Notes: a model not told the origin generated them from the letters alone. Positions 14,607 through 56,682 are shown, counted from the stretch's first letter. The stretch is DNA of 64,000 bases from Bacteroidales bacterium (GCA_021108325.1 JAIORB010000027.1:20469-84468), one strand, 5' to 3'. Numbers and translations: made by a program.

Positions 14607-14710
14607 CCTGGTCTGCCGACAGGCAGGCTAGGTGCTTAGCGGATTTGCTAACAAATTGATAATAAGATTGCTGATTTTGTAGCATTTTATAAAAATAGCC
14701 GCTTAGCACC
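14607..14710. repeat. MITE/REP-like intergenic element (hairpin plus GGTGCTTAGCGG-type inverted termini)
   Basis: Hairpin ctgcc-gaca-ggcag at 14613-14626. ggtgcttagcgg (14631-14642) and gccgcttagcacc (14698-14710) form a near-perfect inverted repeat. A second copy sits at 58477-58575 in the opposite orientation and shares ggtgctaagcggctat. Confidence 0.6.
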
Positions 14711-18206: not shown

Positions 18207-19544
18207 TTATTTGAATTTCTTAAGAATCGTTTTAATATCTTTTATTCTTTCTTTTAGTATTTCTTTATTATCAGCTTCAACTAATAATCGCAAATAGGGC
18301 TCAGTATTGGAAGGGCGAACATTGAACCACCAGTTTTTAAATTCGATACGATAACCATCAAAATCAAGAATTTCCATAGGTTCTTCTTCGGTAACGAAAT
18401 AATCTTTTAAAGCTTCCATAGCTTCTTGTTTTTGCTCAATTTTAAAATTGATTTCGCCGGAATTTGCGTATTTACTAATATTTGAAATTATCTCCGACAT
18501 GGTTTTTCCTTCTTTTTTAAATTGTGAAAGCAGATTTAAAACAATTAATGAGGCTAAAATACCTGAATCGGAATAAAAGAAATCGCGGAAATAATAATGA
18601 CCTGCTAATTCGCCGCCGTATATACCGTTTATTTCTCTTAATTTTGGCGTAGCATAAGCTCTCCCCACTCGCCAGGTGTGCATTTTACCACCTAGCTTTT
18701 CAACATATTCTTTTACAGCTTTTGATGTACGGATATCTTCAAGAACAGCACCGTTTTCTTTTTCAAGAAAATAATGTGCCATAAATCCAATAATTAAATC
18801 CGGAGAAATGAACTTGCCTTTTTCGTCAACAAACATTACACGATCCGCATCGCCATCGAAAATAACTCCAATATCACATTTTTCACTTAAAACTGTTTTT
18901 TTAAGGTCAGCAACATTTTCTTCGATTAAAGGATTTGGTTCATGATTTGGGAAGCTGCCATCCAGGTCTTCATATAAATAAACAGGTCTTTTGCCTAAGA
19001 ACTTTTTAATTAAAAACCCGGCCATCCCATTAGAACAATCTACAGCCATTTTCAGGTTTGAGTAATCCTGAACATAAGTTTTTAAAAACTCAACATATTC
19101 ACCTTTAACTTTATAGTCAACTATTTTCCCTTTCTTATCTGCAATAACAATATCACGGGTTTGGATCATTTCTAAAAGCTTTTTCAATCCTGTATCATAA
19201 CCAACGGGCAAAGCATTGGATTTAGAAATTTTCATTCCGTTATACTCACGTGAATTATGCGATGCTGTAATTTGCACCGATGCAGCAAAATTATGTTTTG
19301 CTGTAATGTAATATACCATTGGAGTAGTTGAAATACCAATATTATAAACATTTGCTCCACTATCAATAATTCCCTGAGCAAGATTTTCAAAAATTTCATC
19401 AGAAGAAATCCTAACATCTCTTCCAACAAGTACATTGTCGGCTTGTAAAAGTTCTGGCAGAAAATACCCGATTTTATAAGCATCATCTTTATTGAAATCC
19501 TCGTTATAAATACCTCTGATGTCGTATGCCTTAAAAGCTTTCAT
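18207..19544 (-). CDS. phosphomannomutase/phosphoglucomutase (alpha-D-phosphohexomutase family)
   Basis: Phosphoserine loop TASHNSREYNGMK and metal-binding loop FDGDADRVMF; 445 aa. Confidence 0.85.
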   Translation of the reverse strand: MKAFKAYDIRGIYNEDFNKDDAYKIGYFLPELLQADNVLVGRDVRISSDEIFENLAQGIIDSGANVYNIGISTTPMVYYITAKHNFAASVQITASHNSREYNGMKISKSNALPVGYDTGLKKLLEMIQTRDIVIADKKGKIVDYKVKGEYVEFLKTYVQDYSNLKMAVDCSNGMAGFLIKKFLGKRPVYLYEDLDGSFPNHEPNPLIEENVADLKKTVLSEKCDIGVIFDGDADRVMFVDEKGKFISPDLIIGFMAHYFLEKENGAVLEDIRTSKAVKEYVEKLGGKMHTWRVGRAYATPKLREINGIYGGELAGHYYFRDFFYSDSGILASLIVLNLLSQFKKEGKTMSEIISNISKYANSGEINFKIEQKQEAMEALKDYFVTEEEPMEILDFDGYRIEFKNWWFNVRPSNTEPYLRLLVEADNKEILKERIKDIKTILKKFK

Positions 19545-19645
19545 AATTAAATTTACATTAATAGAACTGATAATTTAGAAAGAAAGAAGCCAGATTTTAA
19601 ACTGACTTTCAAAAGTTTTCGATGATGCAAAAATGCGATTTTTTT

Positions 19646-20932
19646 TTATTTTGTTAAAGCTTTAACGGGTTCAATTCCCAAGGTTGTTCCTTCCTGAATT
19701 GCTTTTAAAACAGCTCCACCTCCCGTAAATATATAATACTTAGGACTGTCGAGTGCAACAATATATAATCCCGGCAATAATCTTTTTAATTCCTGCATGG
19801 TATCGCCGCCGCCATAAAGTTTTACTGCTTCAATATTTTCATCAATTAATTCGTCGAGAGCAATTGTACCTTCATTAAAATGTGGTGTGAATCCCATTAC
19901 TGCATTTACAAAAATGGTTCTTGCCGAAGAAAATATTTTATGGATATCGTCTTCGTAGAATGATTCTTTTGCAACATCAAGAACATAATTGAGCTTAGTT
20001 CCGGGCTTTAATTCATGAATGTTATGTATCCTGTTTTTACCTTCAAATTTACCTTCCATGGTGTCTGATTCAATAATAAACGGGAGCTCAACTAATTTGC
20101 CGGGATATTTCTCACTGAATTCAGCAAACTTTTTTGCATGAGCCAAATCATCTTCAGAAATACCTTTTATTTCAATATCGTATTTTGCGCATAAATATGC
20201 GTTATAAATAACACCTCCTAATACCAGGTAATCAGCCTTTTTAATTAAAGCATAAAGTGAATCAATTTTTGTGTCGAATTTTGAACCAGCAACAACAGCA
20301 ATAAACGGAGATTGAGGACTATAAATTCTTTCAAGGTTTTCAATTTCTTTTTGCATTAAGAATCCGGCATAAGAAGGAAGATATTTATTTACTCCAACAG
20401 TAGAAGCATGTGCTTGCCACGATCCAAAAGCATCGTTTACAAAAATATCTGCTAATCCGGCCAGTTGATTTGAGAAACGATCCATATCAGCTCCTTTTGC
20501 TTCTTCGCCTTGAAACCATCGAGTGTTTGGTAAATAAATCCCATCAATTTTACCATCTTTTAATTCACGAATAGAATGATTTATTGATGTTTCTATTCCA
20601 ATGTATCCTTTATTTTCGTGAGGATAAAAATCCGGAATTTTCATGTTAATATGGAGCTTGTTACGCAGGTATTCAACAATTGGCTCAACAGACGTATCCT
20701 TACTTATTTTAATATCTCCGGTTTTTTTATCTTTTGGTCGCCCAACATGCGACATTAAAATTATTTTACCACCTTTAGCGTTGATGTGGTAAAGCGTTCC
20801 AATTGTGGCATCTATTCTGTATGGATCATGAATAATCCCTTTTTTAACTACATTATGATCAACACGAACCAAAACAATCTTGCCGTTAAGATCAGCATCC
20901 TGAATTAATGGAATATTATATTTATCGAGCAT
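19646..20932 (-). CDS. divergent phosphoglycerate kinase family protein (PGK-like paralog)
   Basis: PGK landmarks are retained: RVDHNV, SHVGRP, NDAFGS..AHAS, AGSKFDTK, GGGDT and TGGGA. The canonical AHRAH is replaced by WQAH and WNGPxGVFE by VNAVMGFTP (alignment by eye). Confidence 0.7.
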   Translation of the reverse strand: MLDKYNIPLIQDADLNGKIVLVRVDHNVVKKGIIHDPYRIDATIGTLYHINAKGGKIILMSHVGRPKDKKTGDIKISKDTSVEPIVEYLRNKLHINMKIPDFYPHENKGYIGIETSINHSIRELKDGKIDGIYLPNTRWFQGEEAKGADMDRFSNQLAGLADIFVNDAFGSWQAHASTVGVNKYLPSYAGFLMQKEIENLERIYSPQSPFIAVVAGSKFDTKIDSLYALIKKADYLVLGGVIYNAYLCAKYDIEIKGISEDDLAHAKKFAEFSEKYPGKLVELPFIIESDTMEGKFEGKNRIHNIHELKPGTKLNYVLDVAKESFYEDDIHKIFSSARTIFVNAVMGFTPHFNEGTIALDELIDENIEAVKLYGGGDTMQELKRLLPGLYIVALDSPKYYIFTGGGAVLKAIQEGTTLGIEPVKALTK

Positions 20933-20935
20933 TTT

Positions 20936-20942
20936 ACCTCCT
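20936..20942 (-). promoter_or_regulatory. perfect Shine-Dalgarno AGGAGGT in front of the PGK-like gene
   Basis: The minus strand reads aaaaacAGGAGGTaaaATG. I found no comparable SD in front of the other start codons inspected in this window. Confidence 0.6.
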
Positions 20943-20952
20943 GTTTTTAAAG

Positions 20953-20972
20953 CCTGTCTGCCGACAGGCAGG
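20953..20972. repeat. GC-rich palindromic hairpin repeat (cctgtctgccgacaggcagg)
   Basis: Overlapping palindromes cctgtc/gacagg and ctgcc/ggcag. A 16-nt identity links it to copies at 14611-14626 and (reverse complement) 45125-45140. Confidence 0.7.
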
Positions 20973-21101
20973 TTTGAAAATTGTTATCTGAAAGGGAACA
21001 CAATTTAAAGCAAAATTGTTTTTTAAACAATAAAATTGTTTTGAATAAACAAGAATTGCCTTAAATTTAGTGACTTTAAATTGAAAGATGAATTGTGTTT
21101 C

Positions 21102-23486
21102 TCAAATATCCTCATTAATAGCTTTTAAAGCAGGCAGTTCCTTTCCTTCAATATATTCCAGTAAAGCTCCTCCGGCTGTCGAAATATAACTTATTTTATA
21201 AGCTAGACTAAATTTATTTACAGCAGCAATGGAATCACCGCCTCCGATTAAGGAAAATGCTCCTTTATCGGTAGCACGAGCCACTGCCATGGCAATTTTT
21301 AAGGTTCCCATTGAGTAATTTGACATTTCAAAAACTCCTATTGGCCCGTTCCAGAGTATAGTAGATGAGTTTTCAATTACTTCGGTAAATTCATTGGCCG
21401 ATTTTATTCCGATGTCCAAACCCATCCATCCATCTTTAATCTGACCTATTTCGCAATGTTCAATATTTGCATTATTATTAAATTCGTCAGCAATAATACA
21501 GTCGGTAGGTAAATACAGGTTTACATTATTTTCTTTAGCTTTTGTAATAATGTTTTTTGCAACATCAAGGTAATCATCTTCAACTAAAGAATTTCCAATT
21601 TTACCACCCATAGCTTTAGCAAAAGTAAAAGCAATTCCACCGGCAATAATTAAATTGTCAACTTTTTCAATTAATGCTTCAATGATGTGTATTTTAGTTG
21701 ACACCTTCGATCCTCCCAGAATTGCAGTAAATGGTCTTTTCGCTTGTTTTATTACTTTATCGATATTATTAATTTCATTTTCCACCAGGTAGCCAAACAT
21801 TTTGTCTTCAGGAAAAAACTTGGCTAAAGTGTATGTTGAAGCATGTGCTCTGTGTGCTGTTCCAAAAGCATTAAAAACATAAGTATCGCCAAGTTCAGCC
21901 AATTGTTTAGTGAAATTCTCATCTGCATCGATTTCCTCAGTATGGAATCGAAGATTTTCAAGTAACAGGCATTCTCCCGGTTTTAGAACTGTTGCGGCAA
22001 TTATTGCTTCTTCTCCGATGCAGTTAGCAGCAAATTTTACTTTTTTATCAAGAGCTTTTGATAAATAAGGTAATATATGTTTTAATGAAAAATCTTCGTT
22101 GAACTTTCCTTTTGGTCTGCCTAAATGAGTTAAGAATATAACAGAACCACCTTCGGCTAATATTTTACGAGCTGTCGGTAATGCAGTAATAATTCTTGTG
22201 TCATCGGTAATTTTCCTGTTTTCGTCCATAGGAACATTGAAATCAACACGCATTAAAACTTTTTTGCCCTCAAAGTTATATCGGTCAATGGTTAAGTTTT
22301 GCTTAATAGCTTTAATACTTGGCAGTTCCTTTCCTTCAAGGTATTCCAGTAATGCACCGCCGGCTGTCGATATATAGCTGATTTTATGAGCTAAACTATA
22401 CTTGTTAATTGCAGCTATTGAATCACCTCCGCCAATCAAGGAAAACGCCCCTTTATCAGTTGCACGGGCTACTGACATAGCAATTTTTAGTGTTCCCATC
22501 GAAAAACTTGGCATTTCAAAAACACCTATCGGGCCATTCCAAAGTATTTTTTCGGAGTTTTCGATCACTTCTGAAAAGCGATTTGCAGATTTAATTCCAA
22601 TGTCAAGACCCATCCATTCATCAGGTATTTCATTAATATCACAATGATCAATTTGGGCATCATTTTTAAAATCATCTGCAATAATGCAATCGCTTGGTAA
22701 ATATAATTTAACTTTATTTTTTTCAGCCTCTTTAATAATATGTTTTGCAAAATCTAAAAACTCATCTTCAACTAAAGAATTTCCGATTTTACCACCCATA
22801 GCTTTAGCAAATGTGTATGCAATTCCTCCCGCAATAATTAAATTATCTACCTTTTCTATTAATGTTTCTATAATATGGATTTTAGTAGATATTTTCGATC
22901 CTCCGAGAATTGCTGTAAAAGGATGCAAAGGTTGGTGTAAAATTTTGTCTATATTATTTATTTCACTTTCGACAAGATACCCAAACATGCTGTTTTTTGG
23001 AAAATGTTTAACAATAGTGTAAGTCGAAGCATGTGCTCTGTGTGCAGTACCAAATGCATTATTTACATATACATCACCAAGGCTGGCAAGGTGTTTTGCA
23101 AAATCTTCATCAGCATCTGTTTCTTCTTTATAAAACCTTAGATTTTCTAATAAAAGAATTTCACCGGGTTTTAGGGTTTTAGCTAGTTTTTCTGCTTTAA
23201 TCCCAATACAATCCGTTGCAAATTTAACTTCTCGATCAAGGACTTTGCTTAAATGAGGAAGGATTATTTTTAAGGACATTCTCTCATTAAATTGACCTTT
23301 TGGTCTTCCCAGGTGTGTTAAAAGAATTATAGATCCACCTTCAGCTAAAATTTTTTGAATCGTTGGTATTGCAGTAATAATCCTTGTATCATCGGTTATT
23401 TCAAGTTTTTCATTTAACGGAACGTTAAAATCCACGCGCATTAATACTTTTTTTCCTGTAAAATTATAGTTGTCGATAGAATACAT
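21102..23486 (-). CDS. pgk: tandem phosphoglycerate kinase fusion (two complete PGK modules in one ORF)
   Basis: 794-aa ORF. Module 1 is codons 1-397 (23486-22296) and module 2 is codons 398-794 (22295-21102). Both carry [38 protein letters not shown](I/V)[13 protein letters not shown] and GGGDS. The junction reads [14 protein letters not shown] with no stop and no start codon. Confidence 0.85.
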
Positions 23487-25080: not shown

Positions 25081-26218
25081 ATGGATAATATTGATAAAGA
25101 AAAGTCAGGTAATCAGTCTGAATTAAATATATCTTCTTGTAATTGTTTAAAACCTGAAAGTTGTAGTAAATTAGAAGCTTTTGATTGGCTGAACAATATC
25201 CCGGAGCCATCTAAAAAGCTGGATATTATAGAGGTTCGGTTTAAAAATACACGTAAGGATTTTTTTATAAATTCAAATTTGTTACGCCTAAAAAAAGGAG
25301 ATATTGTTGCCGTTGAAGCATCTCCGGGACATGATATTGGTATAATTTCATTGACAGGGGAAATAGTTGGCTTTCAACTAAAAAAACAAGGAATTAATTC
25401 GGCAGAGTATGAGTTCAAAAAAGTATACCGAAAAGCTAAACCTGCTGATTTTGAAAAGTGGCATGAGGCAATATTGCTTGAAGATTCTATCATGTTTAAA
25501 ACCTAATTTAGAGATGAAGATTGGTGATGTTGAATATCAGGGAGATAAAACAAAAGCAATTTTCTATTACATTGCTGATGAGAGAGTTGATTTCCGTGAG
25601 TTAATAAAAATTTTAGCTGAAAAATTCAAAATTCGAATTGAGATGCGCCAGATTGGTGCGCGACAAGAGGCTGGAAGAATTGGAGGAATTGGATCATGTG
25701 GCAGAGAACTTTGTTGTTCAACCTGGATAACAAATTTTGTTTCGGTAACAACAAATTCAGCACGTTACCAGGAGATATCGTTAAATCCACAAAAATTAGC
25801 CGGGCAATGCGGGAAATTAAAGTGTTGTTTAAATTATGAGCTGGACTGTTATGTCGATGCTCAAAAAGATTTTCCTTCAAGAGAAATTGTGCTGGAAACA
25901 AAAACAGGACAAGCTTATCATAGCAAAACAGATATTTTCCGTGGACTAATGTGGTATACTTTTGATCCGGTTAATTTGGTGAATTTTACTCCGGTTCCTG
26001 TCGAAAGAGTAAAGGAAATAATTGAACTTAACAAAAAGGGTGTTAAAGTTGATGTATTAGTAGATATATCAAATGCTCCAACGGAAAAAGCACTGGATTT
26101 TAAAAATGTGGTCGGACAAGAAAGCTTAACTCGTTTTGACGACAAACAGGCTAAAAGGAAAAAGAAAAAAAATAATAAACGTAGAAGACCCAGAAATGAA
26201 AAGCATCAGAAGCCTTAG
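25081..26218 (+). pseudogene. ricT: PSP1-domain protein RicT/YaaT homolog split by a frameshift into two overlapping ORFs
   Basis: ORF 25081-25506 carries the N-terminal part (VRFKNTRKDFF ... WHEAILLEDSIMFKT-stop). The conserved PSP1 core (LEMKIGDVEYQGDKTKAIFYYIADERVDFRELIK ... CGRELCC ... CGKLKCC) continues in the +1 frame (25409-26218). The switch point is at tttaaaacctaa (A4 run 25498-25501). Confidence 0.6.
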
Positions 26219-26727: not shown

Positions 26728-27426
26728 GTGGGAAAAAATAAATTGTCGAGGTTTGCCGAAATGGGAACTTTTAATCATGTTGTTCAGCCTCCCTTTGATG
26801 AAATTTTCAAGAAAGATTACAGGTTAAAAGGAAAATGGAGTAAAGAGTTTTTTGATAATGAAAATCCTTTAATTTTAGAGTTAGGATGTGGCAAAGGTGA
26901 ATATACAATTGGTCTGGCTAAACAAAACCCGCATATAAATTTTATTGGGATTGATATTAAAGGAGCCAGGATGTGGAGAGGAGCTAAAACAGCTCTTGAT
27001 GAAGAAATAAAAAATGTTGGGTTTTTAAGAACAAGAATTGACCTGACAAATTCTTTTTTTAGCGAGAAAGAGATTTCTGAAATTTGGATAACTTTCCCCG
27101 ATCCGCAGCAAAAAAAATATTATAAACGACTTACTTCGACACGATTTTTAGGATATTATCAGGAATTTATTAAACAAGATGGATTTATCAATCTGAAAAC
27201 TGATAATGCAGATTTGTATGCCTATACAAAAAGAGTTGTTGAAATAAATAATTTGGAACTAATTATTGATACTGATAACCTTTATGATTCAGGAATTGTT
27301 GATGATATTCTTTCTATAAAAACTTTTTACGAGCAGCAGTTTTTGTCTCAGGGGAAACCCATTCATTATTTAAGATTTAAATTGAATAAATCCATTAAGC
27401 TTGAAGAACCAGAAGACGAAAAATAA
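26728..27426 (+). CDS. trmB: tRNA (guanine-N7)-methyltransferase
   Basis: MGKNKLSRFAE N-terminus (GTG start), SAM motif LELGCGKGEYT and FPDPQ motif. Confidence 0.85.
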   Translation: MGKNKLSRFAEMGTFNHVVQPPFDEIFKKDYRLKGKWSKEFFDNENPLILELGCGKGEYTIGLAKQNPHINFIGIDIKGARMWRGAKTALDEEIKNVGFLRTRIDLTNSFFSEKEISEIWITFPDPQQKKYYKRLTSTRFLGYYQEFIKQDGFINLKTDNADLYAYTKRVVEINNLELIIDTDNLYDSGIVDDILSIKTFYEQQFLSQGKPIHYLRFKLNKSIKLEEPEDEK

Positions 27427-45110: not shown

Positions 45111-45150
45111 AACGGACATTTCTACCTGTCGGCAGACAGGCTTGTCCGTT
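45111..45150. repeat. nested palindromic repeat (aacggaca ... cctgtcggcagacagg ... tgtccgtt)
   Basis: Outer 8-bp inverted repeat at 45111-45118 / 45143-45150. The inner hairpin 45125-45140 is the exact reverse complement of 20953-20968. Confidence 0.7.
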
Positions 45151-52338: not shown

Positions 52339-52604
52339 TACAATACTTAAAGTGAACTAAAGTTTAAAGCCTGCCTGACGGCAGTCAGGTTCTGAGTTTT
52401 TAGTTCAAAGTTTGTTAAATGGTTTACTAGGTTACTTGTATTTTTTACTTAAAAACATAAGTTAGACTAATGCCGTATCAAAGGAGTTTTCGTAAAATTC
52501 GAAATATAATTTATGTGGGATTGTACTAAAGCATCCCTAAGTTTCGAGCTATAAATTATAAATGGAATACTAAACCATTCATCGAAACGACTTGGGATGC
52601 GCAG

Positions 52605-56611: not shown

Positions 56612-56682
56612 GGTCGCGTGGCCGAGTGGCTAGGCAGCGGTCTGCAAAACCGTCTACGGCGGTTCGAATCCGCCCGCGACCT
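56612..56682 (+). tRNA. tRNA-Cys (anticodon GCA)
   Basis: Manual cloverleaf: acceptor GGTCGCG/CGCGACC; anticodon stem GCGGT/ACCGT with loop CTGCAAA; T arm GGCGG-TTCGAAT-CCGCC. The discriminator is T, as expected for tRNA-Cys. CCA is not encoded. Confidence 0.9.

Follow-up and report, generated by a model that had tools for sequence, protein, structure and literature searches.

The locus analysed here raises the question of what a third, divergent homologue of phosphoglycerate kinase (PGK) does next to a gene that already encodes two PGK domains. It is situated in a 64,000 nt stretch of DNA from a Bacteroidales bacterium (GCA_021108325.1 JAIORB010000027.1:20469-84468), which as a whole is referred to as the window. 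A preliminary description of this DNA had laid out three open reading frames on the minus strand, and all three were recovered as described: a PGK-PGK tandem fusion of 794 aa (21102..23486), a protein of 428 aa, here named PGKL (19646..20932), and an alpha-D-phosphohexomutase of the PMM/PGM type with 445 aa (18207..19544).

PGKL is a divergent member of the phosphoglycerate kinase family

The protein matches the Pfam family HMM PF00162 with 277.4 bits (E = 2e-82, gathering cutoff 27), and its residues 10-413 cover the profile positions 1-377 of 379. Each domain of the adjacent canonical fusion scores about 500 bits on the Pfam PGK profile, compared with 277 for PGKL. The only NCBIfam match of PGKL was PRK13962, a PGK/TIM fusion model that is itself two-domain, with 203 bits versus a cutoff of 883. 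The AF2 model (pLDDT 93.3, pTM 0.88) displays the two-domain PGK fold, and its top matches in the PDB were exclusively PGKs with TM-scores of 0.77-0.87; the fold is shared with the canonical enzymes of T. maritima (1vpe), G. stearothermophilus (1php) and man (PGK1, 2xe6). The PGK motifs listed beforehand were all located in PGKL (RVDHNV, SHVGRP, NTRW, NDAFGS, WQAH, AGSKFDTK, VNAVMGFTP, GGGDT, and TGGGA). ORF prediction, the full-length Pfam match and the subfamily search described below agree with the proposal that PGKL is a third, divergent PGK paralog, and judged from its sequence PGKL is a member of a distinct, very strongly conserved and uncharacterised branch of phosphoglycerate kinase. 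In all sources and databases the protein is named phosphoglycerate kinase.

The fusion reaches 993 bits in Pfam over two PGK stretches, and both of its halves contain the motifs AHRAH and WNGPIGVFE. It is probably the housekeeping PGK; the converse assignment, with PGKL as the ordinary enzyme and the fusion as the oddity, does not agree with the finding that the canonical motifs are present in the fusion and not in PGKL.

Kept and changed active-site residues

Residues were assigned by aligning PGKL to T. maritima PGK (1vpe) with HMMER and to 90 diverse canonical PGKs plus human PGK1 with MAFFT; the human sequence was confirmed to be identical to PDB 2xe6_A. HMMER placed the NDAFGS-WQAHAS segment with high posterior probability and revealed a His to Trp and an Arg to Gln exchange together with a one-residue deletion. 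MAFFT gave the same picture and in addition showed the ribose-binding Glu343 to be deleted. The conversion of AHRAH to WQAH, first read by eye, withstood this analysis: the canonical Arg was not found in either alignment, and the exchange to Gln is invariant throughout the subfamily. Likewise, the segment VNAVMGFTP, suggested to replace WNGPxGVFE, is present and invariant across the subfamily.

Taken together, a signature of His169Trp, Arg170Gln, Gly238Val, Leu256Gly, Gly337Ala, Pro338Val, and a deleted Glu343 is invariant in 87 members; F123W and F24H are also invariant. In PGKL numbering W172/Q173 are situated at the distal 3PG-phosphate site, and V241, G257, A344, and V345 in the rebuilt adenosine pocket. 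Further differences from canonical PGK are W335V, S392F, the deletion of Thr167, and several insertions comprising about 30 extra residues in total, and the overall identity amounts to only about 30-35%. The pattern R-x-D-x-N-[SACV]-P, which we take to be typical of canonical PGK, is found in 66 of the 90 canonical sequences but in none of the 87 PGKL members.

Nineteen of 59 near-invariant canonical columns are changed in PGKL and 40 are kept. Most changes fall into three places, namely the adenine cleft and sugar contacts (G238, L256, P338, E343), the pair H169/R170, and the hinge residue S392. The roles of the cleft and sugar-contact residues, including V341, have been described (PMC2441801), and H169/R170 belong to the basic patch of PGK (PMC7729029). 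When the 36 non-redundant members were considered, H169W was found in 97% and R170Q in 100%, so that the complete basic patch for 3PG (H62, R65, R122, and R170, with H169) is not present; H62, R65, and R122 are retained. The canonical adenosine pocket is not preserved either, with G238V, L256G, P338V, V341F/L/Y, and the E343 deletion each occurring in at least 92% of the members. The human E343A mutant is still active, being about 270-fold less efficient (PMC2441801), from which it is to be expected that canonical adenosine binding by PGKL is impaired and catalysis is not abolished.

The residues identical to canonical PGK comprise D23, N25, R38, H62, R65, R122, K215, K219, N336, GGGD[ST], and TGGG. 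R38, K215, K219, N336, G371-373, D374, T375, and G394-396 are conserved at 97-100% in the 36 non-redundant members, and PGKL has the phosphoryl-transfer and phosphate-binding residue set of canonical PGK (EC 2.7.2.3). D23, N25, and R38, which contact the carboxylate/2-hydroxy-acid head of the substrate, are also retained. Two conserved residues, His26 and Lys69, the latter situated in an insertion, are specific to the PGKL subfamily.

Distribution and conservation of the subfamily

A homology search of 1.84 billion representatives retrieved full-length PGKL relatives with 278-502 bits, whereas canonical PGKs start only at about 155-198 bits. The PGKL group is a discrete PGK subfamily, set apart by this bit-score gap and by the invariant signature. 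The carriers seen are solely metagenome-assembled genomes of anaerobes and belong to Bacteroidales, Cloacimonadota, Spirochaetota, Desulfobacterales, and Thermodesulfovibrionia; one is an Altiarchaeales contig. A second homology search, starting from a Cloacimonadaceae member, gave metagenome-assembled genomes only and no cultured carrier. In the plasmid and phage collections only canonical pgk genes were found, with less than 35% identity to PGKL.

Between Bacteroidales, Desulfobacterales, Spirochaetota, and the Altiarchaeales contig PGKL is about 80% identical, and in the crown of the PGKL tree the phyla are intermixed; both observations point to horizontal transfer. The deepest diversity is found in Cloacimonadota, to which PGKL may be native. 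PGKL and a canonical PGK were seen together only in the lineage carrying the three-gene array and in the locus L087.

In every genome pair compared PGKL was more conserved than both the canonical fusion and the mutase and was the slowest-evolving gene of the neighbourhood. For one pair the identities of PGKL, fusion, and mutase were 94.9, 87.0, and 90.3%, respectively; for another they were 80.1, 76.4, and 66.8%. This pattern suggests strong purifying selection on PGKL over its whole length.

Predicted expression signals of the PGKL gene

The start codon of PGKL (ATG at 20932-20930, minus strand) is preceded at a distance of 3 nt by the Shine-Dalgarno (SD) sequence AGGAGGT (20936..20942, position -13..-7). 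As claimed before, this is a rare perfect SD: none of the other genes among the 47 predicted in the window has a real SD 5-mer at -20..-4 of its annotated start. A second 5-mer match at 26761 was rejected, as it concerns an internal ATG of the ORF that starts at GTG 26728. Pairing with the 3' tail of the 16S rRNA was calculated as -11.7 kcal/mol versus a median of -1.3 kcal/mol, the tail sequence being assumed since the window contains no rRNA. Among the 30 distinct leaders compared within the lineage, 28 share GGAGG, although they vary elsewhere.

The ribosomes of Bacteroidia normally sequester the anti-SD; SD-led genes are rpsU and rpsR, and AGGAGGU is the strong SD that rendered reporters responsive to bS21 depletion (PMC9976891, PMC7797042). 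PGKL resembles these genes in having a strong, conserved and properly spaced SD despite the sequestration, but it is a metabolic and not a ribosomal-protein gene. Its pairing energy of about -11.7 kcal/mol, for the assumed tail, lies in the range of the rpsR type (-8 to -12 kcal/mol) and does not reach the extended pairing of rpsU, typically under -13 kcal/mol (PMC9976891). We infer that the SD of PGKL is a regulatory signal.

Upstream of the SD the alignment of 30 upstream regions disclosed a promoter-like block on the minus strand (20999..21030). It consists of TTG (21030-21028), a 20 nt spacer, and TAAATTGTG (21007-20999); in the aligned regions TTG and TAnnTTGTG are kept, with variation at the 'nn' positions. 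The element fits what we take to be the Bacteroidetes promoter consensus, -33 TTTG and -7 TAnnTTTG, and TTG-N20-TAnnTTGTG is the predicted, promoter-like element of PGKL itself. Within the block lies a dyad, ACAATTT-N6-AAATTGT (21019-21000, minus strand), that is unique in the window. As an RNA stem it was rejected because its changes are not compensatory, and it is better read as a putative promoter or operator acting at the DNA level.

Between promoter and SD, in the 5' leader, there is a REP-like palindromic hairpin, GCCTGTCGGCAGACAGGC (20952..20969, minus strand). The palindrome noted earlier upstream of the SD is thus real, but it is a dispersed intergenic repeat rather than a regulator specific for PGKL: the window contains four copies (at 14607, 20952, 45124, and 52373; 0.01 expected by chance), all between predicted ORFs, and the copy at 52373 has compensatory changes in the stem. 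Upstream of PGKL the palindrome occurs only in the window and in two other loci (L009, L010), and L034 and L071 carry variants of it. Rfam searches revealed no riboswitch or leader RNA, neither between 17.5 and 24.5 kb at E <= 1 nor in the whole window at the gathering score. They also returned one tRNA (at 56612) and a sub-threshold snoRNA match inside the coding sequence.

Between PGKL and the mutase a terminator-like hairpin followed by a T-rich tract was identified (19577..19608, minus strand). Scanning for sigma-70 promoters and terminators alone gave sites at chance level; the weight given to the hairpin comes from the comparison across loci, in which AAAGAAGTCAG-loop-CTGRCTTCTTT is kept in almost all loci of the lineage with variable loops (dG -7.5 to -18 kcal/mol). 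Given the promoter-like element in front of PGKL and the conserved hairpin in front of the mutase, the co-directional array is not read as an operon, and PGKL is predicted to be transcribed separately from the mutase.

Genes adjacent to PGKL

The mutase contains four PGM_PMM Pfam domains, and its best solved relatives are the Xanthomonas PGM (5bmn) and the P. aeruginosa PMM/PGM (1k35). When the ORFs of 88 PGKL loci were clustered all-vs-all, the mutase cluster was found to adjoin PGKL in 35 loci; all come from one Bacteroidales lineage, and their PGKL identity is 80% or more. None of the clustered loci from Desulfobacterales, Altiarchaeales, Spirochaetota, Cloacimonadota, or other Bacteroidales showed this adjacency. 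Outside this lineage PGKL has no conserved neighbour: a Pfam census of 121 neighbour proteins, taken from 34 non-array loci, showed no enrichment except for a T9SS tail domain of generic type (6 members), and the tight same-strand neighbours (GcpE, NqrA, histidine kinase, nitroreductase, DUF498, DUF3187, and GNAT) were not recurrent. Its spread as a lone gene speaks for substrates that are ubiquitous. Next to the mutase the window contains a gene for a multi-pass membrane protein and two ORFs, one methyltransferase-like and one glycosyltransferase-like. These genes look like a polysaccharide-biosynthesis cluster, for which the Pfam families were seen only in the orthologues of relatives.

Discussion

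What could be the function of PGKL? We tentatively favour the reading that PGKL is a kinase that is competent in catalysis, has a transcript of its own, and stems from a horizontally spread, discrete PGK subfamily, being active on a glycerate-type acid with an altered phosphoryl partner. From the residues that are kept and changed we infer its activity, substrate, and partner as follows. In the reaction of PGKL a glycerate-type acid would most likely accept or donate the phosphoryl group at its carboxylate, with 3-phosphoglycerate/1,3-bisphosphoglycerate as prime candidate pair, since the residues recognising the acid head (D23, N25, R38), the larger part of the basic patch, and the whole transfer apparatus are kept. 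Throughout the subfamily the part of the nucleotide site that binds adenosine is remodelled, as is one end of the 3-phosphate site; this suggests that the phosphoryl partner is probably bound differently from, or is other than, the ADP/ATP of canonical PGK. PGKL would act alone, with no dedicated partner gene and with a canonical PGK alongside. In the Bacteroidales lineage it would be expressed from its own promoter, with its own terminator and the strong conserved SD, a signal that in Bacteroidia would be regulatory and not serve general initiation.

A doubtful but serious alternative is that PGKL is a neofunctionalised kinase that phosphorylates some other 2-hydroxy acid at its carboxylate, the distal group of this acid being less negatively charged or bulkier than phosphate, e.g., a sulfonate, a carboxylate, or a glycosylated glycerate. 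In favour of this, the subfamily has lost one of three phosphate-binding arginines (R170Q), and H169W, F123W, and F24H are invariant. The absence of conserved neighbours is compatible with another equally ubiquitous acid as well. A precedent is the algal PGK3, which is encoded beside ArsJ/GAPDH and needed for arsenate tolerance (PMC7826186). On the other hand, H62, R65, R122, D23, N25, and R38 are retained, so that a 3PG-like ligand is well provided for, and the nucleotide side rather than the acid side is most remodelled; moreover, no conserved reductase, transporter, or upstream enzyme was found in the 34 diverse loci.

Second, PGKL could be an ordinary PGK isozyme that depends on ATP and represents a second type of sequence; the pocket changes would then be compensated, and only regulation or kinetics would differ. 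The uniform annotation as phosphoglycerate kinase, the intact catalytic core, and a lone-gene context like that of a housekeeping gene fit this explanation, as does the retained activity without E343 (PMC2441801). PGKL may even serve as the principal PGK of certain lineages, e.g., Cloacimonadota, where its diversity is deepest and where it is possibly native, and His26 and Lys69 could restore a normal basic patch, making PGKL a plain PGK. We nevertheless consider an ordinary isozyme unlikely: H169, R170, G337, P338, and E343, 91-100% invariant in the 90 canonical PGKs, are replaced in every PGKL member, fully canonical PGKs coexist in the array lineage and in L087, and redundancy does not explain a purifying selection stronger than that on the canonical enzyme.

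Still less probably, the partner of PGKL would be pyrophosphate/phosphate or polyphosphate rather than an adenine nucleotide. Such a partner is allowed by the intact phosphate-handling residues and by the replacement of the adenine cleft and the ribose contacts in every member; the polyphosphate version would presumably match the orphan activity EC 2.7.4.17 (3-phosphoglyceroyl-phosphate:polyphosphate phosphotransferase). Kinases with a switched donor exist in anaerobes, namely PPi-dependent phosphofructokinase and the PPi-dependent acetate kinase and GTP-preferring PGK of Entamoeba. Like PGKL they have kept the phosphate-handling residues, show an altered nucleoside pocket, and are patchily spread among anaerobes via horizontal transfer. 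For PGKL they are an analogy only, and a PPi, polyphosphate, or GTP specificity of the subfamily is putative.

A functional link to the mutase had been called conceivable; PGKL might, for example, provide 1,3-bisphosphoglycerate or produce the sugar-1,6-bisphosphate activator. The pair does survive two-sided rearrangements within the Bacteroidales lineage (L005, L021, L030, L031, L032, and L070) and is kept even where the fusion is not adjacent. However, the adjacency is missing from every other PGKL lineage and phylum, a conserved predicted terminator hairpin separates both genes, and in the window the mutase abuts polysaccharide-biosynthesis-like genes; the coupling is very improbable, and the activator idea is pure speculation. 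Finally, a pseudo-enzyme that lacks catalysis and serves regulation or structure is the least likely reading; a non-catalytic role had been considered earlier in view of the two altered substrate-contact motifs, but the residues contacting the transferred phosphate or Mg2+ are retained at 97-100% subfamily-wide (R38, K215, K219, N336, GGGDT, and TGGG all being scored as 100% conserved), and PGKL, under very strong purifying selection over its whole length, evolves more slowly than the fusion.

To our knowledge, PGK generally counts as a family with one function and with substrate-site residues conserved in all enzymes studied, a pattern from which the PGKL subfamily consistently departs. Among the papers searched, none dealt with a PGK-like subfamily in prokaryotes, with a PPi-dependent PGK, or with PGK in Cloacimonas. 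Non-canonical paralogs beside a canonical PGK are known from algae (PGK3/PGK4, PMC7826186) and trypanosomatids (PMC4106842, PMC7729029), and at least one of them, PGK3, has a non-glycolytic phenotype (PMC7826186). These proteins are eukaryotic and are set beside PGKL by description, not by sequence comparison; the ArsJ/GAPDH neighbours of PGK3 have no counterpart near PGKL.

PGKL is under a constraint above that of the housekeeping enzyme and appears to have moved as a single gene between phyla, possibly between domains. Its strong conserved SD makes this metabolic gene a rare candidate for a non-ribosomal target of the anti-SD sequestration and specialised ribosomes described in Flavobacterium. 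If PGKL uses a different donor or substrate, it would represent a clean repurposing of the active site in a classical glycolytic fold, and reconstructions of central carbon and energy metabolism would have to be revised for many uncultured anaerobes. A non-adenine partner would add another donor-switched glycolytic step to those of the pyrophosphate-economy anaerobes, alongside PPi-PFK and PPDK, and PGKL would be the first prokaryotic case in which the PGK fold has diversified in function.

The PGK-like subfamily

Three adjoining genes are encoded on the minus strand. The fusion gene (21102-23486) is a single ORF of 794 aa in which Pfam recognized two complete PGK domains (993 bits), both fully canonical. 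The 428-aa PGK-like protein (PGKL, 19646-20932) matched one full-length PGK domain (277 bits, E = 2e-82), and the 445-aa mutase (18207-19544) contains four phosphohexomutase domains, being nearest to the bacterial PMM/PGM enzymes of Xanthomonas (5bmn) and P. aeruginosa (1k35). None of the three proteins passed an NCBIfam equivalog. The motifs quoted in the preliminary description were all found in the ORF sequence. The fusion length of 794-795 aa is conserved throughout the window's Bacteroidales lineage, and the representative library holds two separate 50%-identity clusters of PGK-PGK fusions (P0141, 795 aa; P0143, 797 aa). Nearby, a frameshift near 25480-25505 breaks a PSP1/YaaT-family gene (25081-26218, plus strand) into two overlapping ORFs, one of 141 aa and the other of 269 aa. 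Its relatives are single proteins of ~385 aa, whose residues 1-141 tblastn located in frame 1 and whose residues 143-385 it located in frame 2; recoding, a pseudogene, or an error in sequencing or assembly could each account for the split.

Among 1.84 billion cluster representatives, full-length relatives of PGKL scored 502, 406, 327, 283 and 278 bits. PGK-PGK fusions ranked below them with ~195 bits, and ordinary PGKs reached ~155 bits at 35% identity. By this score gap to the canonical PGKs, PGKL defines a distinct PGK subfamily, a possibility already raised in the preliminary description. Every member recovered carries the signature RVDHNV / DPYRID / [ST]HVGRP / NTRW / NDAFG-SWQ[AP]H / AGSKFDTK / LGGV / VNAVMG[FLY]--[TV]P / GGGDT / TGGGA, the deep branches being no exception.

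The carriers are metagenome-assembled genomes throughout; the homology searches yielded no cultured isolate, and no PGKL was found in the known plasmids and phages searched. They comprise many Bacteroidales (gut and faecal lineages among them), Cloacimonadota, Spirochaetota and Leptospirales, Desulfobacterales, Thermodesulfovibrionia and 'Nitrospirae', Armatimonadetes and one Altiarchaeales contig. The proteins of Desulfobacterales, Spirochaetota and the Altiarchaeales contig share ~80% identity with the window PGKL, but those of some other Bacteroidales only 68-70%. In a rough NJ tree a shallow crown of mixed phyla was seen beside deep Cloacimonadota and Thermodesulfovibrionia branches. Cross-phylum identity and tree together suggest that the subfamily has been transferred horizontally. 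Cloacimonadota often possess two tandem PGKL genes 0-39 nt apart (L042, L045, L049-L052, L074), both with the full signature; copy 1 falls within the mixed-phylum crown, copy 2 within a deep Cloacimonadota clade. In the window's lineage no other gene of the neighbourhood evolves as slowly as PGKL: each comparison showed it to be more conserved than the mutase and the canonical fusion.

Two loci deserve mention concerning their assignment. A contig labelled Thiohalospira sp. (L022, JBKHIH010000069.1) shows the complete Bacteroidales synteny (GldH, PSP1, HolB, fusion, PGKL, mutase) and is therefore probably a mis-binned Bacteroidales contig. The Altiarchaeales PGKL (L002/L003, WOR_SM1_SCG) is 79% identical to bacterial ones and lies beside archaeal-type HTH (DUF7343) genes, reflecting either cross-domain transfer or mis-binning.

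Putative expression signals and gene neighbourhood

We compared 30 distinct PGKL upstream regions of the window's lineage. A block TTG-N20-TAnnTTGTG (21030-20999, minus strand) with variable 'nn' positions is conserved. In the Bacteroidetes -33/-7 promoter consensus these positions are likewise variable, and we regard the block as promoter-like. A perfect dyad ACAATTT-N6-AAATTGT (21000-21019, minus strand), lineage-conserved and unique in the window, overlaps the block and may be an operator for a regulator. The leader itself (in the window ...GCCTGTCGGCAGACAGGCtttaaaaacAGGAGGTaaaATG) varies in length and sequence across the lineage. The palindrome described upstream of PGKL is indeed present (20952-20969), but it is a dispersed REP-like element (consensus GCCTGTCGGCAGACAGGC) with further copies at 14607-14624, 45124-45141 and 52373-52390. 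All four lie between predicted ORFs, with 0.01 copies expected by chance in the window; the stem of the 52373 copy is kept by compensatory changes. In the PGKL leader the element is confined to the closest relatives.

GGAGGT is almost invariant 3-5 nt before the PGKL ATG, and GGAGG occurs in 28 of the 30 leaders, missing only in the outlying L031 and L033; other PGKL-carrying Bacteroidales lineages are without a Shine-Dalgarno sequence (SD). That this SD is exceptional was borne out: among 47 window genes, PGKL alone has one in front of the annotated start. Its predicted pairing with the anti-SD is -11.7 kcal/mol versus a median of -1.3, an assumed 16S tail being used. In Bacteroidia, bS21, bS18 and bS6 sequester the anti-SD, rpsU and rpsR are the main genes known to carry a strong SD, and an AGGAGGU reporter went up when bS21 was depleted (PMC9976891). 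Because of this sequestration and the bS21 response, a regulatory role of the PGKL SD would be plausible.

Across the lineage PGKL is followed by a conserved hairpin (dG -7.5 to -18 kcal/mol) of the form AAAGAAGTCAG-loop-CTGRCTTCTTT and a T-rich tail. Right after the stop codon and before this hairpin (19615-19645, minus strand), nearly all lineage loci share an A-run and, behind it, TCGCATTTTTG(C/T)A, resembling the -7 box TAnnTTTG; the stretch might belong to the terminator context or be the promoter of the mutase. Given the promoter-like block upstream and the conserved hairpin downstream, PGKL looks monocistronic. Of the proposed co-directional array the shared strand stands, but the order fusion / PGKL / mutase is restricted to one Bacteroidales lineage (~35 loci, PGKL identity at least 80%).

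In that lineage the PGKL-mutase pair is kept despite insertions between fusion and PGKL or a fusion located elsewhere. This lineage-restricted synteny lends weak support to a dedicated link with the mutase, as had been considered; in all other lineages PGKL is solitary with unrelated neighbours. Among 121 neighbour proteins drawn from 34 loci, a Pfam census revealed no enriched family except a T9SS sorting domain of generic type. In L087 a canonical 396-aa PGK adjoins PGKL in divergent orientation. Going by deposited gene calls, unusually long non-coding stretches of 0.5-1.2 kb precede PGKL in several loci outside the Bacteroidales, namely L001 (8788-10001, Desulfobacterales CP070789), L038, L058, L076 and L087.

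Active-site residues and predicted function

HMMER placed NDAFGS-WQAHAS of PGKL opposite the canonical motif of T. maritima PGK, and VNAVMGF..TP opposite WNGPMGVFE, confirming that the latter segment is altered. In addition, human PGK1 (reference identical to PDB 2xe6_A) and 90 diverse canonical cluster representatives were compared with 87 subfamily members. Of 59 near-invariant canonical columns, 40 are kept and 19 changed. D23, N25, R38, H62, R65, R122, K215, K219, N336, G371-G373-D374-T375 and G394-396 (canonical numbering) are kept in 97-100% of the subfamily; they include two of the three basic-patch arginines and the ligands of the 2-hydroxyl (D23 and N25), and between them they bind the acid head, Mg2+, the phosphates of the nucleotide and the phosphoryl group being transferred (PMC7729029, PMC2441801). 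Essentially every member shows H169W and R170Q with residue 167 deleted, F123W, E119P, F24H, G212A, G238V, S255K, L256G, W335V, G337A, P338V and S392F, and lacks E343 and residue 344. In human PGK, G238, L256, P338, V341 and E343 contact the adenine cleft and ribose (PMC2441801). Both alignments therefore uphold the Arg-to-Gln change noticed earlier, which by these comparisons belongs to a wider, coherent remodelling that mainly concerns the adenosine side. The AlphaFold model (pLDDT 93.3, pTM 0.88) matched only PGKs in the PDB (TM 0.77-0.87).

The intact transfer chemistry and acid head, with the adenosine pocket and one phosphate ligand replaced, argue for an active enzyme rather than a pseudo-enzyme. 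Single-gene transfer without a partner points the same way, and so does purifying selection that exceeds that on the housekeeping PGK. The substrates would then be ones already present in every cell, as the data suggest, and 3PG/1,3-BPG is accordingly the foremost candidate acid. It is more likely in the phosphoryl partner than in the acid that PGKL differs. Serious rivals are a different acid substrate and a plain ATP-dependent PGK isozyme with compensated pocket changes; as to the latter, the exchange E343A in human PGK lowered kcat/Km ~270-fold but did not abolish activity (PMC2441801). The non-catalytic role once suggested is unlikely in view of the retained transfer residues and the strong selection.

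By HMM and fold PGKL is a member of the PGK family, but it differs from all characterised PGKs in its incomplete basic patch and in the adenosine and ribose contacts, which are not conserved. Our literature search found no description of this prokaryotic subfamily; the nearest non-canonical precedents are eukaryotic, namely trypanosomatid PGK-like proteins and algal PGK3/4, the latter with an arsenate-tolerance phenotype (PMC7826186). Proof of a new substrate or of a donor other than a nucleotide would make PGKL far more significant.
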